64,000 bases of DNA from Bacteroidetes/Chlorobi group bacterium MS-B_bin-24 (GCA_003731685.1 RCNO01000004.1:2222-66221), one strand, 5' to 3'; numbered from the stretch's first letter, positions 41,705 through 54,689 are shown. Notes: generated by a model not told the origin, from the letters alone. Numbers and translations are program-made.

Positions 41705-41769
41705 ATTTGGAAAAAAGAAAAGTATTTTTTAAGTTTGTATACTTTTTTATAATATAAAAGGGGCTATAT

Positions 41770-42957
41770 ATGCTTAAATTTCCAATATGGGAAGAATTAA
41801 GTAAAGATGAACAAGTTCCTATTTATAATTTACCTTTGGATAAAAATTATGTGATAACTGGTGGACCCGGAACAGGAAAAACTGTACTTGCAATTCACAG
41901 GGCAGCGAGATTGAAAGATGAGGTAGGAGAAGGGAAAGTTAAGTTTTTGGTTTTTAATAAACCTCTAATGCTTTATTTAAAAAGAGTCTTAGAAGAAACT
42001 CAATTAAAGGTTGAAGATGAGAATGATAGTTTTGATGTTGACGTACAAACTTGGCATTCTTGGTTTTATGGTTTTTATTCGAGATTTATGAATAGCCCTG
42101 TTCCGCAAAAACGCGATTACGAACCAGATTGGAATAGAATAATGAATGACTCAAGATTTGTACGACTAATCAATGAAACAACACTTTGGGACCATTTAAT
42201 AATTGACGAAGCCCAAGATTTTCCTTTGGAACTTTTAGAAATTTTAAAAAGACTTTCTAAAAATGTAACTATTTTCGCAGATCCTAACCAATCAATCTTA
42301 TCCAATGACACCAATATTGCCGAAATACTTAGAATATTTGAAGCCGGTGAAAGGCGTTTTTATTTAACAAGAAATTATAGAAATACTTTTGAAATATATA
42401 ATGTTGGAAAAGTTTTTTATACTGGGGAACCTAGTAATTTACCTGGTCAGCCAATAAGAACTGGAAATAAACCTCGGATAATTGCTTATGAAAACGAAGA
42501 GGTCGTATATAAAAGAATCAAAAATTATGCGGAAAATAATCCTACAAGTAATATAGGAATCATTCTATACGATTTTAAAAATGCTAAAGATTTTTTCAAC
42601 AATCTTAAAAAATATATAGATAAAAAAATTTGTAAAGTTATGTTGTATCGACATAGTAGAAATATTGAGGATTATTTTAATTTTGACGAACCAGGAATAA
42701 AAATAATCTATAATTGGGTGATGAAGGGTCTTGAATTTGATACTGTCTTTTTGCCAAGATTAACAGATATAGATTTTATTTTAAAAGACCCACTAGACCC
42801 ACTTAAAATTAACCAAATTTATGTTGCCACTACAAGAGCCAAGAATGATGTATTTTATTTTTATGAAAAAGACAAGGAAGATTTATCCTTTGTTATAAGA
42901 AAATTGAAGTTAAAAGAAAATAGAAATTTAGTTGAATGGGAGGTTAGTAATGGATAA
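41770..42957 (+). CDS. Compact SF1 (UvrD/Rep-like) helicase/ATPase, first gene of the AT-rich three-gene operon
   Basis: GGPGTGKT (I), TWHSWF, LIIDEAQDF (II), ADPNQSI (III), LTRNYRNT (IV), MKGLEFDTVFL (V) and YVATTRAKNDVF (VI), all within 395 aa. Confidence 0.8.
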   Translation: MLKFPIWEELSKDEQVPIYNLPLDKNYVITGGPGTGKTVLAIHRAARLKDEVGEGKVKFLVFNKPLMLYLKRVLEETQLKVEDENDSFDVDVQTWHSWFYGFYSRFMNSPVPQKRDYEPDWNRIMNDSRFVRLINETTLWDHLIIDEAQDFPLELLEILKRLSKNVTIFADPNQSILSNDTNIAEILRIFEAGERRFYLTRNYRNTFEIYNVGKVFYTGEPSNLPGQPIRTGNKPRIIAYENEEVVYKRIKNYAENNPTSNIGIILYDFKNAKDFFNNLKKYIDKKICKVMLYRHSRNIEDYFNFDEPGIKIIYNWVMKGLEFDTVFLPRLTDIDFILKDPLDPLKINQIYVATTRAKNDVFYFYEKDKEDLSFVIRKLKLKENRNLVEWEVSNG

Positions 42958-44770
42958 ATTTGAGTTCTATGTCTATACTAATAACAATAACTTAAGACAC
43001 ATACTATCTCAAAATGAAATTATGTCGAAAGATTTTTTTGAAACAGATAAATATTATGAATCATTTTCCACATTAATCGATTGGGGGATTTTACTAACAG
43101 ATAAAAAATGTAGCTCCAGTTTTTTAAACAACTTCAAAGATGATTATCAAAATTTATATCCAGTTGTACTTAAAGTTAATTTAAATCATTTGCTCAATCA
43201 AAATGCTTATTTAATCAAAAATGATTATACTACATTCTTTAATAAGATAGGCAATTATGATTCATCAAAACATTTTGGTTTGATAATTCCTGGTTTTTTG
43301 CCCGCTTTTGTTATTGAGACTATCTGTTTTAATTCTGAAGAAGAAAAAAAAAGATATACTTCTTTATTAATGAGAAATATTTTTTTAGAAAGTTACGATT
43401 ATGAAGTTAATTCAGATTTATTCAATGGGGATTATGCCTTTGATATACAAAAACTTAAATGTATTGAAGGAAAAAATTTTTCTGAACCTCAGGATAAAAT
43501 TAAAAATTTTATACAGCTACGAAGAAAAATAAGAGCAGGAATTATCGCAGCTTTTGGCAATTTTAAATACAACGTAACCAATGAATTATTTTTAAATTTT
43601 GACAAACTTTTTCTTTCATTATTTGAATTTTTGATTCCCAATTATAATTCAAGTGAGGATTGGAATAAAATAAAAAAACAATTTCTTGAAAAGCCGTTGA
43701 CTAATGCACAGGCTTTGTGGGATGATAACACTCTGTTCCCGGCAATTTTGAAAAATTTGTTCGAAAGTAATAGTTCATCACCATTTTTATCCAGTTCAAA
43801 TATGGTTGAAAAAGATAGAATTTTAGATGAGAAAATTTCCCTTTTTTTGGTAGAAACATTTATTAAAGGAAAAGAGCTTGAGCGGGATAATTTTAGAAAT
43901 TTTTTGGATTCATTAGAAAACAATCTATGTGAAACAGAAAATGGATTCCATAAGATTAGGAGTTATATAGATACTATTTTTAAAATCAAACATTCTGAAA
44001 TAAGTATTAGGGACGCGGTCCTAACTTTAAATAATGCATTTATGTCATTGAAATCTCTCATTTTTTTAATGAGTATGAATCCTCAAGATACATTAAATGA
44101 CATCTTGTATAAATTGGAACAATATAAAACAAATCCATTTTTTAAGAGATTGACATTATTCTATTATGGTTTAATGAAGGGTTTATCACCATTGGATGCA
44201 GATTTTAAAAAAAATCAAACCGTTTTAGTTTTATCCGACTTCCTTTCTTTAAAAAAATATTATCCTGAATTTTTCCAATCATTATCTATTGAATATGTAA
44301 AAGAATGCCTCCTTAGGGCAAATCGTAAAGATTTAAAATTTGTAGAGAATAACTTTGTTGAATCCACTCTTGGTTTGAAATTAATTTATTTTAAAATTGA
44401 TTTCAAAGAAAAATTTAGGAAAATATTGTTATCCCTTTTAAATTCAAAGGGTAAAGAAATATTGCAAAAATACATTCCGGAGTGCATAGAAAAGGCTAAA
44501 ATTTATTGTTCCCCTGAGATAAGTTTTTCTCAAGAAAACCTCAATTCACTGGTTTTTGAAAATAATAAATGGTATATTACGCTAAAAAGTGATCAAAATT
44601 TGAATATAAAATTTAAGTTTTTGGAAAGTGGGTGGACTAAATTCGTGGAAAAATATTTAAAAAACGAGAAAGAATTTAGAAAAATTCCCCCTGAGCAACT
44701 TATTGAATTATATAAATATCTTGAAAAAGCTAAATTGGTAAACAGCTATGAACTTAGAATCGATCATTAA
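42950..44770 (+). CDS. Hypothetical protein (about 606 aa), second gene of the operon
   Basis: Long uninterrupted ORF. ATG 42950 is preceded by GGGAGG and overlaps the helicase stop by 8 nt. No family recognised. Confidence 0.7.
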   Translation: MDKFEFYVYTNNNNLRHILSQNEIMSKDFFETDKYYESFSTLIDWGILLTDKKCSSSFLNNFKDDYQNLYPVVLKVNLNHLLNQNAYLIKNDYTTFFNKIGNYDSSKHFGLIIPGFLPAFVIETICFNSEEEKKRYTSLLMRNIFLESYDYEVNSDLFNGDYAFDIQKLKCIEGKNFSEPQDKIKNFIQLRRKIRAGIIAAFGNFKYNVTNELFLNFDKLFLSLFEFLIPNYNSSEDWNKIKKQFLEKPLTNAQALWDDNTLFPAILKNLFESNSSSPFLSSSNMVEKDRILDEKISLFLVETFIKGKELERDNFRNFLDSLENNLCETENGFHKIRSYIDTIFKIKHSEISIRDAVLTLNNAFMSLKSLIFLMSMNPQDTLNDILYKLEQYKTNPFFKRLTLFYYGLMKGLSPLDADFKKNQTVLVLSDFLSLKKYYPEFFQSLSIEYVKECLLRANRKDLKFVENNFVESTLGLKLIYFKIDFKEKFRKILLSLLNSKGKEILQKYIPECIEKAKIYCSPEISFSQENLNSLVFENNKWYITLKSDQNLNIKFKFLESGWTKFVEKYLKNEKEFRKIPPEQLIELYKYLEKAKLVNSYELRIDH

Positions 44771-45956
44771 TTGCATTAAAAATAAACTACCCTCTCCAGA
44801 AATAGATAAAATGGCTATTTCAATTTTTGAAAAAGGAACCTTCCTCAATGAAATATATTATTCTGGGAAATATATTTATCTTTTTTGTAATGTTGAAGGA
44901 AGTTACGACCATAAAATCTTGATAAAATTTGAAGAACTTATTAACAACGGGTTAAGTTATAATAAAGATAAAGAAATCTATCTAGATGTTTTATCTGTTC
45001 TTTCTGAGTTGTGTTTTAAATACAAGCTTTACAAACAAGCTAACAATTATTTACTCTTGTTACGAGATATAGGGGAATATGAAAATTTACCAATATGGGT
45101 TTTTAATTATTCTGCTAAAATAATTTTTATGAACGATATTAAAGATGCTTTATATAATCCTGATACTATAATAAAACTGTTGACCAAAAAATGCAGGTTA
45201 GATAAAAATTTTCAAGGGGTCAGCATTTTGAAAGAATTTATATTGTGTTTAATTGATTCAGTTGAAAATCTTGATAAACAAAATAGTCTGAATTTTGAAT
45301 TATTTTTTGGGCTCCAGAATGTTATAAAACCATATACTCATTTAATTGCAAAAGAATGGAATCTTTTGTTAGAAACCATTATAAATCATTGTAGAATACA
45401 TAATAAAAAGCAATCTCAATTTTACGAGTTTTTATTTGACTTAAATACAATAAATCAATTATTAGAGGAAAAAAATAAAGAATATGAAAGGTTATATAAT
45501 AAATATATTGAACTCGAGGATAGATATCAAAGTCTTATGTCGCAATCTTATTTGCTTGAAGATGATAGGAGTAATTTTAAAGAAAAGATAAAAATATTAG
45601 TATTAGGGGCAAGTTCTTTAAAAAAAGAGTATATTTTTGGAATAGCAAAAGAATTTGGTTTGTCTAAAGACCAATTAGATTTATTTCTGGATTATGATAA
45701 AAATAGAAGATTTCAAATCGAAAAATTAAGATATAACTCCCCCTATTCAGGTATTTTAATAGGTCCAGTAGCTCATTGTGTTACCGGTTTAGGTGATTAT
45801 AATTCTGTAATTGAAAAATTACGAAACGAAGAAGGTTATCCTCCGTTTAGAGAAATTAAAACATTTAGTGGAGAATTGAAAATTACAAAAACAGCTTTTA
45901 AAGAAGCTTTGGAGCAATTATTAACTTCTATAAAGGGAAATATTCAAGTTTTTTGA
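44748..45956 (+). CDS. Hypothetical protein (402 aa) with a central coiled coil and a C-terminal DUF2325-like module, third gene of the operon
   Basis: The ATG overlaps the upstream ORF by 23 nt. Heptad-like segment LEEKNKEYERLYNKYIELEDRYQSL. C-terminus ILVLGASSLKKEY...GILIGPVAHCVTG...KITKTAFKEALEQLL. Confidence 0.7.
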   Translation: MNLESIINCIKNKLPSPEIDKMAISIFEKGTFLNEIYYSGKYIYLFCNVEGSYDHKILIKFEELINNGLSYNKDKEIYLDVLSVLSELCFKYKLYKQANNYLLLLRDIGEYENLPIWVFNYSAKIIFMNDIKDALYNPDTIIKLLTKKCRLDKNFQGVSILKEFILCLIDSVENLDKQNSLNFELFFGLQNVIKPYTHLIAKEWNLLLETIINHCRIHNKKQSQFYEFLFDLNTINQLLEEKNKEYERLYNKYIELEDRYQSLMSQSYLLEDDRSNFKEKIKILVLGASSLKKEYIFGIAKEFGLSKDQLDLFLDYDKNRRFQIEKLRYNSPYSGILIGPVAHCVTGLGDYNSVIEKLRNEEGYPPFREIKTFSGELKITKTAFKEALEQLLTSIKGNIQVF

Positions 45957-46109
45957 GTAATCATCAAAAACTTATTTGGCTTATTAAATAATTTTCTATT
46001 TATTAAGGTTTTACTTTTTAGCCAAAAATATTTACAAATAGCAATATTTATACTTTATACCCTTTATTTTCCTTGATTTTTTGTAATTTGCTTTTTTTAG
46101 GTAAATAAA

Positions 46110-53192: not shown

Positions 53193-53280
53193 GTCCGTTT
53201 CCCTACGCCGGTATTACCCGGATCAGGTTCCAGGGGTATCCTCTCAGCCCAATCGTCTGATTGAGCACCCCCAACGGACA
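53193..53280 (-). promoter_or_regulatory. TPP (THI-box) riboswitch
   Basis: The minus strand reads CCGUUGGGGGUGCUCAAUCAGACGAUUGGGCUGAGAGGAUACCCCUGGAACCUGAUCGGGUAAUACCGGCGUAGGGAAACGG. It contains the GGGGUGC, CUGAGA, ACCC, ACCUGAUC..GG.UAAU.CC.GCGUAGGGAA core, closed by a CCGUU/AACGG P1 helix. Confidence 0.9.
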
Positions 53281-53582
53281 AATGCAAAATTAATAAATTT
53301 TGGAATTAAAAAGTTCAAACAAACTTGAAAATCATTTAAATTTTTCTCTTGCTTCTTCAAATCATACATCCTAAGCAATGCTTTAACTCTGTTAATTGAG
53401 GTAATTTGTTGCATTTAAAATATCAGAACCTGAAAGTGGCAACTTTTGCAAATCAAATGTTAATATTTTGTTTGGTTTTTGCAAATATTTTGTTAACTTG
53501 CTCCTTTTTATATTTTGTTTGTTGTTTAAAAATGAATTTAATTTTTAGGTATTCAGTTTTGTTTTAAAATTAGAAAGATGAT

Positions 53583-54689
53583 ATGAAAATTTCAAAATTC
53601 AATTTTCGCCTTTTAGCGCTTGGTTTTGTTTTTTGGATTATTGGTTCTAATTTTTTGTTTTCTTTGGAACTGAACAAATCATTTGAGATTAATAACTTAA
53701 GTTACCTTTCCTATTCCATTGGCTTTTCCGATGGAAAAATCCAAAACAATCAGTTCAACGTCTCTCGCTCCTATTTGACTTTTAGATATTCTTTGTTCGA
53801 CTTTTTGAGCTTTCGAATGACTGTGGATACAAGGCAGGATGAAACTGGTGATTTTAAAGCACTATTAAAATTTCTTTATGCAAATTTTGTTTTCAAAGAC
53901 ATTTCCTTTCTGGTTAAACCGAATATCCAATTTGGTTTGGTTGAAAATACTTGGCATTGTTTTGAAGAAAACATTAACCTTTATCGTATGCAAGGAACAA
54001 TGTTCATCGAAAGGGTTGGTATTTTCAATTCCGCTGAATTTGGAATTACTTTTACAAGCCTTTTGGGTGGCAAAATGGACGAAGAGTATCAAAAAACTGT
54101 TAACAAAAAATTTCCCGGCAAATATGGAAGTATTGCATTAGGTGTTTACAATGGGGGTGGTTACCATTCTTTTGAAAAAAATAAAAATAAAGTTTTTCAA
54201 AGTCGATTAACTTTGCGACCATTGCCAAAATTTGTTCCAGGTTTTCAAATCTCATATCTTGGGATTTTTGGTAAGGGGAACCAACCCGAAATTGATACGT
54301 TGAGGAATTCACCTCCCACCTGGGTTACTCACGATGTTTTCCTTTCTTTTGAGCACAAAAAGTTTACTTTTACTTTGCAGTATCTTGATGGAAAAGGGAA
54401 TCAATTTGGCAAAATGGTGGACAGTATAAATAATTCAATTAAATATCGTGGTTACTCTGCCTTTGCCGAACTGAAACTTGATAACAACTGGAGAATTATT
54501 GGTAGATACGACTTTGTCGACCCCAACACGGAGATTGATAACAATAACGAACAGAGACTGATAGCAGGTATTGGATATAATTTTGGCAATGGAAATATTC
54601 TTATTCTGGATTATGACCGAAGGATGTTCCAAAACTCGAGCAAACCAAGCGAAAACAGCCTGAAATTAACGATGCAGATTAACTTTTAA
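53583..54689 (+). CDS. Putative outer-membrane beta-barrel porin (OprO/P-like)
   Basis: Signal/TM N-terminus, alternating-hydrophobicity strands, aromatic girdle residues, and a terminal ...LKLTMQINF. Confidence 0.5.
   Translation: MKISKFNFRLLALGFVFWIIGSNFLFSLELNKSFEINNLSYLSYSIGFSDGKIQNNQFNVSRSYLTFRYSLFDFLSFRMTVDTRQDETGDFKALLKFLYANFVFKDISFLVKPNIQFGLVENTWHCFEENINLYRMQGTMFIERVGIFNSAEFGITFTSLLGGKMDEEYQKTVNKKFPGKYGSIALGVYNGGGYHSFEKNKNKVFQSRLTLRPLPKFVPGFQISYLGIFGKGNQPEIDTLRNSPPTWVTHDVFLSFEHKKFTFTLQYLDGKGNQFGKMVDSINNSIKYRGYSAFAELKLDNNWRIIGRYDFVDPNTEIDNNNEQRLIAGIGYNFGNGNILILDYDRRMFQNSSKPSENSLKLTMQINF

Follow-up and report, generated by a model that had tools for sequence, protein, structure and literature searches.

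Among the described antiviral systems that come close to the locus considered here are DarTG and DISARM. DarTG consists of DarT, a toxin that ADP-ribosylates single-stranded DNA (ssDNA), and an antitoxin of the DarG macro or NADAR kind, and it acts against phages. DISARM comprises the helicase DrmA, the DUF1998/MZB protein DrmB, a methylase and DrmC. The locus lies at positions 41705–45956 of a 64,000-nucleotide (nt) stretch of DNA from Bacteroidetes/Chlorobi group bacterium MS-B_bin-24 (GCA_003731685.1 RCNO01000004.1:2222-66221), the whole of which is called the window below. It holds three open reading frames (ORFs), which encode a helicase of superfamily 1 (SF1; ORF1), a protein with a DarT-like N-terminal domain (ORF2) and a tetratricopeptide repeat (TPR)/coiled-coil protein (ORF3). 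With a probability of about 0.6, this block is a self-contained three-gene defence or conflict system, most likely directed against phages or plasmids. A preliminary description of the same DNA had proposed an uncharacterised system of this kind, and the proposal has gained support, as neither the composition of the block, nor the homologues of its proteins, nor the conservation of the three genes contradicted it. We infer the defence function from the genomic context. The features of the locus are as follows.

41705–41769, plus strand: left-end leader of the inserted block, 65 nt, AT-rich, 5' of ORF1
41770–42957, plus strand: ORF1, 395 amino acids (aa), predicted SF1 UvrD-like helicase/ATPase
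42950–44770, plus strand: ORF2, 606 aa from the ATG (612 aa from a TTG at 42932), three domains
44748–45956, plus strand: ORF3, 402 aa
45957–46109, plus strand: right flank, ancestral spacer 5' of nfnA by its similarity to the spacers of relatives, outside the insert

The likeness to DarTG lies in the N-terminal domain of ORF2, which has the DarT fold (probability 1.0; template-modelling score (TM, target) about 0.5 for all but one of the eight best matches), and in a defence-type context; the ssDNA made by a helicase would match the type of substrate on which DarT acts (PMC11543638). Unlike DarT, however, ORF2 is 606 aa long with two extra domains, does not conserve H-Y-E at the expected (approximate) positions, is always paired with an SF1 helicase and has a TPR/coiled-coil partner; the window ORF2 remains below the Pfam threshold for DarT. 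The window operon and its flanks lack a macro (DarG) or NADAR antitoxin gene. Macro-domain genes were found one or two genes downstream of the three genes in just two related loci, L006 and L007. With DISARM the operon shares its core, since distant pairs of helicase and ORF2 stand directly after DrmA and DrmB and near a DrmMII-like C5 methylase, but in the window and in the other inspected loci with all three genes the cassette is without DrmA, DrmB and methylase, and ORF3 takes the place of the nuclease-type third gene.

ORF1 falls in the same broad UvrD-like SF1 group as the helicases of Gabija, NERD-UvrD, Nhi and AbiO. In contrast to Gabija, it has no GajA (OLD/TOPRIM) partner and measures 395 aa against about 500–600 aa for GajB. 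It differs from NERD-UvrD, Nhi and AbiO in having no fused NERD or other nuclease domain, its partners being an ADP-ribosyltransferase (ART)-fold and a TPR/coiled-coil protein. Hachiman is set apart by the lack of any DUF1837/HamA or HamB match in Pfam and PADLOC, and by ORF1 being an SF1 and not an SF2 helicase. The exclusion of Gabija and Hachiman, made by eye in the preliminary description, holds, since none of their partner proteins turned up in the PADLOC scan. The C-terminal domain of ORF3 (CTD) recalls the accessory genes of type I restriction-modification (R-M) systems, as it occurs as a small protein after methyltransferase (MTase)–target recognition domain (TRD) fusions in 13 loci, and also the type IV-like reader-effector fusions with EVE, DCD or ASCH domains, as it is fused to Dev_Cell_Death beside an ASCH gene in the protein P0021. 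In the window, by contrast, the CTD forms one protein with a coiled coil and a TPR-like domain, and its coupled partners are a helicase and an ART-like protein, not a methylase or reader. By analogy, the operon could be regarded as most like a hybrid of DarTG, with an ART fold aimed at ssDNA, and the helicase-dependent Gabija and DISARM. No description of the three-gene unit was found in the literature searched (2CompART, DarT-like with helicase, DUF1998 with ART, ART in DISARM).

The inserted block

The three ORFs have a G+C content of 0.27, against 0.376 for the remainder of the window. All 14 of the 1-kb windows with G+C below 0.30 in the entire 64 kb start between 42001 and 45251. G+C at third codon positions (GC3) is 0.19–0.23 in the three ORFs and 0.33–0.39 in the flanking genes. 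An AT-rich block had earlier been recognised from hand counts of single lines; the computed deviation is sharper than those counts, and the block resembles its flanks neither in G+C nor in codon profile (GC3 about 0.2 against about 0.35). A second, shorter stretch of low G+C (0.27–0.29 in 500-nt windows) is present at 53250–53999 of the window.

Upstream of the block lies the gene for a HdrD-like protein with two CCG domains and a 4Fe-4S domain, and downstream an NfnA/NfnB-like pair; this domain content agrees with the redox housekeeping flanks (HdrD-like, nfnAB) reported before. The nearest relatives of the HdrD-like protein come from Candidatus Kapaibacterium and Ignavibacteria metagenome-assembled genomes (MAGs), with 70–78% identity. 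The order PdxA–lipoprotein–HdrD–NfnA–NfnB–Der is kept in seven related genomes (L045–L048, L051, L053, L072), with NfnA and NfnB 88–96% identical. In these genomes the gap between the HdrD-like gene and nfnA is 167–540 nt, as compared to 4.4 kb in the window. Because the seven genomes keep the gene order with so short a gap, the block is a horizontally acquired insertion of about 4.25 kb. The 153 nt 3' of ORF3 show a similarity, weak but above that of shuffles, to the HdrD–nfnA spacers in the two nearest of these genomes (z = 3.5 and 2.8, with 1/300 and 4/300 shuffles reaching the score and an internal control segment giving z of about 0), whereas the 65 nt 5' of ORF1 have no similarity to the ancestral spacer (z from −0.9 to 1.1). 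The right spacer being ancestral and the left one not, the incoming segment therefore extends over about 41705–45956, directly after the HdrD stop codon. Of the features of a genomic island, deviant composition and an empty site in related genomes are both present. The 30–58 kb part of the window contains no tRNA and the block no integrase-sized ORF, and the only direct or inverted repeats seen in the flanks are short AT-rich matches of the kind that chance produces; the block is without a mobility gene of its own. In this respect the ORF, tRNA and repeat scans bear out what had been noticed by eye, namely the absence of an integrase, an adjacent tRNA and flanking direct repeats.

Three packed same-strand ORFs of 395, about 606 and 402 aa had been described, and their coordinates are unchanged here. 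The ATG of ORF2 at 42950 lies in an 8-nt overlap with the stop of ORF1 and is preceded by GGGAGG (42938–42943), the Shine-Dalgarno sequence of ORF2; the ATG of ORF3 at 44748 lies in a 23-nt overlap with the end of ORF2. Because of the two overlaps and this Shine-Dalgarno sequence, the three genes are predicted to form one translationally coupled operon. The leader contains TATAAT at 41748–41753 and a purine-rich AAGGGG a few bases 5' of the ATG of ORF1. A scan for sigma-70 promoters and terminators, which does not cover the promoters of this phylum, gave no enrichment. A hairpin thought to mark the left boundary did not stand: its 8-bp stem exists as letters but carries no folding signal. The 65-nt leader folds with z = −0.76 relative to shuffles, of which 46/200 fold equally well, and its minimum-energy fold leaves the stem unused. 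The hairpin was rejected as a terminator or boundary since the leader does not fold better than its shuffles.

Recurrence of the genes and the partners of the helicase

The same three genes in the same order, an SF1 helicase of 370–460 aa, a middle gene of 570–680 aa and an ORF3 homologue, were found in about 18 distinct loci. Every full-length ORF3 homologue with sufficient DNA 5' of it is part of such a triad, and the triad spans phyla, occurring in Bacillota, Gammaproteobacteria and metagenomes. The triad is thus conserved well beyond the window. Housekeeping homologues of the two larger proteins were not encountered: an exhaustive HMMER search of 1.84 billion representative proteins gave 36 representatives of ORF2 at E ≤ 1e-3, and a word-indexed protein search returned 20 matches for ORF3. 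The same word-indexed search with ORF2, as a single sequence and as a 4-sequence profile, matched only ORF2 itself. The middle gene diverges fast. Its subgroups could not be connected by phmmer; hhalign connects them (L014, 95.6%, E 1e-8; the L008 type, 72.8%, E 3e-5).

Triad loci on Logan and JGI contigs: L001/2, a JGI contig, L017–L026, L128, L132–L136
Triad loci in MAGs and named taxa: Oscillospiraceae L006, Eubacteriales L007, Bacilli L014, Wenzhouxiangella L008, Lysobacterales L012

ORF1 is predicted to be a compact SF1 UvrD-like helicase with its motif set intact. The full UvrD/Rep motif set, claimed before from reading the sequence, could be located in order as GGPGTGKT (residues 31–38), VFNKP (61–65), DEAQD (146–150), ADPNQS (170–175), RNYRNT (201–206) and VATTRAK (352–358), and the Pfam profiles SLFN-g3_helicase (7e-13), AAA_19, UvrD-helicase and UvrD_C match above their cut-offs. 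The best PADLOC match of ORF1, C3a187 'NERD+UvrD' (4.6e-17), takes in only profile positions 214–542 of 559, which is the helicase part. Other PADLOC matches are partial as well: GajB at 7e-14 (for example residues 24–100 and 138–223), Nhi at 5.5e-7 and AbiO at 1.3e-6. The closest PDB sequence is HelD. No nuclease domain was detected in ORF1, and Pfam gave no NERD match. A helicase of this type lies directly 5' of the ORF2-family gene in every locus with sufficient sequence.

This close association extends beyond the triad. The distant ORF2 relatives P0051, P0052 and P0054 each have their own compact SF1 helicase directly upstream, and these pairs stand directly after DrmA (E 1e-224) and DrmB (3e-75), beside NERD-helicase or NOV_C proteins and a DrmMII-like C5 methylase. 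The order of genes is an optional NERD-helicase, DrmA, DrmB, the compact SF1 helicase, the ORF2-like ART-fold protein, and then NOV_C or NERD-AAA_30.

DISARM-type variant loci: L127:725-11402; L130:1-8902 (with L131); L125:1-8754 (with L126)

From these gene orders, the invariant core is the pair of helicase and ORF2, and ORF3 one of several third partners. The three-gene unit proposed in the preliminary description does recur as a triad, but its invariant core is only this pair, which is shared with DISARM-type loci. Since the pair stands directly after DrmA and DrmB, it would work within an R-M-like, DNA-acting defence machinery. The DISARM and YprA literature searched contained no description of a DISARM variant bearing the pair. 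A C5 methylase and an HhH-GPD glycosylase are found nearby in L127 and L130.

The third protein was modelled with AlphaFold2 at a mean predicted local distance difference test (pLDDT) of 85.9 and a predicted TM score (pTM) of 0.81. It is divided as follows.

44748–45287, plus strand: TPR-like helical domain of ORF3, residues 1–180 (AlphaFold2 model and Foldseek)
45294–45533, plus strand: long coiled-coil hairpin of ORF3, residues 183–262 (AlphaFold2 model), with a disordered linker next to it
45585–45953, plus strand: CTD of ORF3, residues 280–402, Rossmann-like alpha/beta domain of about 120 residues (beta-alpha-beta-alpha-beta)

The model suggests that the coiled coil probably makes ORF3 dimeric. 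Foldseek of the whole model against the PDB and BFVD returned TPR proteins alone (LapB, BamD, LGN; E ≥ 0.012). In the CTD, residues G287, G339, P340, H343, G363, P365, L377, K378, T380 and K381 are invariant and form the motifs G339-P340-x-x-H343, G363-x-P365 and L377-K378-I-T380-K381. None of 23 CTD members matched Pfam, even at E ≤ 10, and the CTD had no PDB sequence relative and no NCBIfam match; profile searches of PDB sequences with ORF3 and the CTD gave coiled-coil noise or nothing. Two candidate identities were set aside. A relation to DUF2325 was considered and dropped, as there was no such Pfam match among those members. A PD-(D/E)xK or PLD (HxK) reading of H343, D350 and K378 was rejected by eye, because spacing and conservation do not fit.

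The CTD is found outside the triad too. In Bacillota, Kiritimatiellae and metagenomes, 13 loci encode a stand-alone CTD protein of 170–200 aa directly 3' of an N6-MTase+TRD fusion gene. Where the sequence continues downstream, the CTD gene is in most cases followed by one for an HsdM-like methylase; full type I R-M genes (HsdS and/or HsdR) were confirmed around L013 (Phocicoccus schoeneichii) and L009 only. One copy of the module sits on an IMG/VR viral contig (L016). P0021, a protein of 332 aa, has Dev_Cell_Death, a PUA-like domain of the modified-base-reader type, fused to a CTD with 53% identity to that of the window. Its surroundings include PLDc_2 and cpYpsA genes in L005 and a HigB/HTH toxin-antitoxin pair in L003.

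MTase-TRD + CTD module: L013:6209-8342; L009:6071-8426; L010:6336-8600; further loci L011, L015, L016, L032–L035, L038, L039, L041
P0021, adjoining an ASCH gene: L003:7390-8388; L004:4882-5880; L005:1678-2676; L029:3300-4307

Judged by these arrangements, the CTD is a mobile module common to three gene contexts, recurring in restriction and modified-base-reader settings. Together with the DISARM-linked pair, this suggests that the parts of the operon belong to DNA-directed restriction or defence machinery. Upstream of the gene for a 422-aa CTD protein (E 2.7e-26) at L043:7152-8417 and L044:392-1657 there is neither a helicase nor an ORF2-like gene, and the protein matched nothing in Pfam or NCBIfam; it may be a fourth context.

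The gene that follows ORF3 is not constant. A conserved fourth gene was rejected, as this gene varies in size and Pfam content across loci, which were not cross-compared directly for their downstream genes, and is absent in the window. In two Clostridia MAGs (L006:4431-8419 and L007:4389-6679) a protein of 621 aa or 403 aa, respectively, lies directly 3' of the triad and is followed by a Macro-domain protein of 336–352 aa; in L006 this pair overlaps by one base, and the same locus carries a DnaG-like primase. These Macro genes could serve the triad as an accessory eraser, or could form an ADP-ribose-related module of their own. In a Bacilli MAG (L014:8627-10181) the triad is followed by genes for a ThiF (E1-like) protein and a PP-loop ATPase. 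In the closest metagenomic homologue a 302-aa gene (L001:9460-10365) comes after it, and has no equivalent in the window; its weak match to the restriction-alleviation protein Lar (E 1.5e-4) reaches 22.4 bits, below the cut-off of 28.6.

The DarT-like protein: transferase or sensor

The AlphaFold2 model of ORF2 (pLDDT 89.0, pTM 0.87) comprises three domains.

42950–43444, plus strand: N-terminal domain of ORF2, residues about 1–165, predicted DarT/Tpt1-like ART fold (Foldseek)
43445–44344, plus strand: central all-helical domain of ORF2, residues about 166–465 (model secondary structure)
44345–44767, plus strand: C-terminal alpha/beta domain of ORF2, residues about 466–606 (model secondary structure)

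Direct scans of ORF2 against Pfam (E ≤ 1), PADLOC (E ≤ 1), NCBIfam and PHROG gave no match. To that extent the earlier view of ORF2 as an orphan of no recognisable family holds for Pfam, PADLOC and NCBIfam, but the N-terminal domain is DarT-like by Foldseek. In the search of the PDB, ranks 1–8 are all DarT or DarTG (7omw, 7omx, 7omv, 7yk3, 7omy, 8baq, 7omu), the structures being from Thermus, M. tuberculosis, E. coli DarT1 and Thermosipho DarTG. These eight matches have E of 4e-4 to 2.5e-2, probability 1.00, about 200 columns and TM (target) of 0.31–0.55, or 0.48–0.55 without the 376-residue DarTG fusion 7omu. Tpt1 (7yw4) comes next, with probability 0.96. Among the ORF2 relatives, Pfam 2CompART was matched by 6/27 (best 1.5e-6; sub-threshold, partial matches) and Pfam DarT (PF14487) by 2/27 at E 0.0059; the window ORF2 had no DarT match at E ≤ 1. 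Full-length P0054 reaches 25.7 bits against 2CompART (PF22546), for which the gathering cut-off is 27. The DarT structures at ranks 1–8, Tpt1 next to them and the sub-threshold matches of the relatives lead us to predict an ART-fold domain of the DarT/Tpt1 type in the N-terminal 165–200 residues or so. The Pfam name '2-Component system ADP-ribosyltransferase' suggests that curators are aware of a related ART family; its defining paper was not found in the literature searched. The central domain contains a conserved R400...Y406...G411...K420 stretch (RLTL..YG.L.G motif). An ARH3-like reading of this domain comes from one weak Foldseek match (6d3a, probability 0.44, TM 0.35) and was not used. 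For the C-terminal domain, Foldseek of the ORF2 model gave no structural match in the PDB.

The question arises whether this fold is still an enzyme. ADP-ribosylation of DNA by ORF2 is plausible. The residues conserved in its N-terminal domain are T10, N11, N13, S20, Y35, P71, G115, P118, F127, S129, N143, F158 and G160, the first of them within a conserved T10-N11-x-N13-N-L motif. In beta-1 of the family a Tyr or Phe stands at the expected His position and no His or Arg is conserved, with positions that are approximate. The residue before the penultimate strand, where the Glu is expected, varies: of 40 sequences, 13 have D, 12 have H and 2 have E, S and N also occurring, and the window has H108. 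It should be noted here that the catalytic positions were placed by the order of secondary structure and DarT/PARP motifs and not by superposition, so the equivalence is approximate; profile searches of PDB sequences with the ORF2 N-terminal domain and with the DISARM-linked ORF2 subgroup gave coiled-coil noise or nothing, and hence no DarT sequence alignment for mapping the catalytic residues.

It could be, then, that the defence system is real but its DarT-like domain is a dead pseudo-ART, which senses ssDNA, NAD+ or ADP-ribose derivatives, while the damage is done by the CTD of ORF3 or the C-terminal domain of ORF2. This is a possibility of some standing, though we regard it as less likely than not. 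The missing beta-1 His/Arg and the variable Glu position speak for it. To judge by the conserved T-N-x-N-N-L motif, S129 and N143, the ligand pocket has still been kept. In the DISARM-linked relatives the third slot holds a nuclease-type protein (NERD or NOV_C), the CTD after MTase-TRD fusions and fused to a DCD reader is in the usual effector positions, and the operon encodes no ADP-ribose eraser. On the other hand, the residue equivalence with DarT is no better than the order of secondary structure allows, and the CTD is without a known nuclease motif. Tpt1-type ARTs, moreover, function without the Glu. Active ARTD-type enzymes are defined by H-Y-E, and in DarT2 the catalytic residues are E160 and R51 (PMC11543638), but DarT1 itself departs from H-Y-E, with S63 replacing the Tyr and aromatics shifted into beta-1 (PMC11543638). 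Within the defence reading, real ADP-ribosyl transfer by ORF2 receives roughly one-third of the weight, and a sensor-only ART-like domain somewhat more than that.

Mode of action and biological meaning

On the reading of the operon as a defence system, we infer every biochemical step of the mechanism as follows. The helicase ORF1 would load on invading or replicating foreign DNA, translocate at the expense of ATP and expose single strands. The DarT-like domain of ORF2 would engage this ssDNA, the substrate of DarT enzymes (PMC11543638), and possibly NAD+; it would either ADP-ribosylate bases and so stall replication or, if catalytically dead, sense nucleic acid or nucleotide. ORF3 would couple sensing to output, using the TPR-like domain for protein contacts and the CTD as an effector or regulator, since in the DISARM-linked relatives NERD/NOV_C nuclease-type proteins occupy the slot that the CTD fills here. 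A bolder version of the idea, offered tentatively and to be held as somewhat improbable, is that a DarT-like ART could be kept safe by coupling to an SF1 helicase and not by an eraser antitoxin, so that it modifies or senses only the invader ssDNA exposed by the helicase. The pair would then be a plug-in for DISARM, and the CTD a new effector or regulatory fold shared with type I R-M methylase-specificity modules and DCD readers.

The neighbourhoods of the triad bear on its function, and often include defence or mobile-element genes. One set of neighbours is HsdM, HsdS, ThsB_TIR and ATPase_2, another a PLDc-SNF2-DUF3427 protein and NUDIX, and a third an SbcCD-like pair with NucS_C. An ImmA/IrrE-type regulator, ArdC-N and RadC also adjoin the triad, as do ArdC-N with an Eco57I-like methylase of 1,349 aa; Macro, ThiF and a DnaG-like primase are further neighbours. 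Could the block be the remnant of mobile-element cargo that helped the element to process its DNA or to establish itself (by replication, recombination or anti-restriction), and not an immune system? The ArdC-N, RadC, ImmA/IrrE-type, DnaG-like primase and weak relaxase-like matches beside the triad in some loci would fit, as would a block that is foreign yet without mobility genes. We nevertheless consider such cargo improbable. Searches with tblastn of 72,556 plasmids and 50,697 phage records found no ORF3 relative; other triad loci are classical defence islands, with type I R-M and ThsB_TIR or with a PLD-helicase; the core pair is built into DISARM-type operons; and in the window the triad stands alone between housekeeping genes with intact frames and coupled translation.

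Several observations weigh against a defence system of the kind proposed. ORF2 and ORF3 match none of 5,027 PADLOC models (E ≤ 1), nor NCBIfam or PHROG, so the operon has no direct tie to a validated system; its defence role is drawn from genes and their context. Transferase activity of ORF2 is doubtful, because the beta-1 His/Arg is not conserved and the expected Glu position holds D, H, S or N, and the window operon has no macro, NADAR or other ADP-ribose-removing partner. For the CTD of ORF3, the Pfam, NCBIfam, PDB and BFVD scans gave no relative of known function, whether by structure or by sequence; slot position is what suggests its role as an 'effector', by analogy. The ArdC, RadC, primase and relaxase-like neighbours in some loci also fit mobile-element maintenance. 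The lack of matches among plasmids and phages could be added, yet it says nothing for or against defence.

That the operon is a diverged member of a named helicase system (Gabija, Hachiman, Nhi/AbiO, DarTG or DISARM) is most improbable: the partial PADLOC matches of ORF1 to GajB, Nhi and AbiO, the DarT-like fold of ORF2 and the relatives in DISARM-type loci would suit it, but ORF2 and ORF3 match 0/5,027 PADLOC models, no GajA, HamA, DrmA/DrmB, NERD domain or macro/NADAR gene is present in or beside the operon, ORF1 covers only the helicase part of the NERD+UvrD profile, and the window ORF2 reaches no Pfam threshold.

What is new here lies within known kinds of defence machinery and comprises two protein families and one domain without a counterpart in the searched libraries. 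The two larger proteins, ORF2 and ORF3, represent families that the searches of Pfam, PADLOC, NCBIfam and PHROGs did not recognise, and the CTD is a new domain of about 120 residues that recurs in restriction and modified-base-reader contexts. The locus also flags a variant of DISARM with the pair of helicase and ORF2, undescribed in the literature searched. Should protection from phages or plasmids be its function, the triad would add a compact, portable three-gene system to those described. If the reading is true, it would join DarT-type nucleic-acid ADP-ribosylation, the helicase-driven sensing of foreign DNA known from Gabija and DISARM, and the accessory modules that sit inside type I R-M loci, and the operon would be a case for the control of a potentially toxic DNA-modifying fold without an antitoxin.

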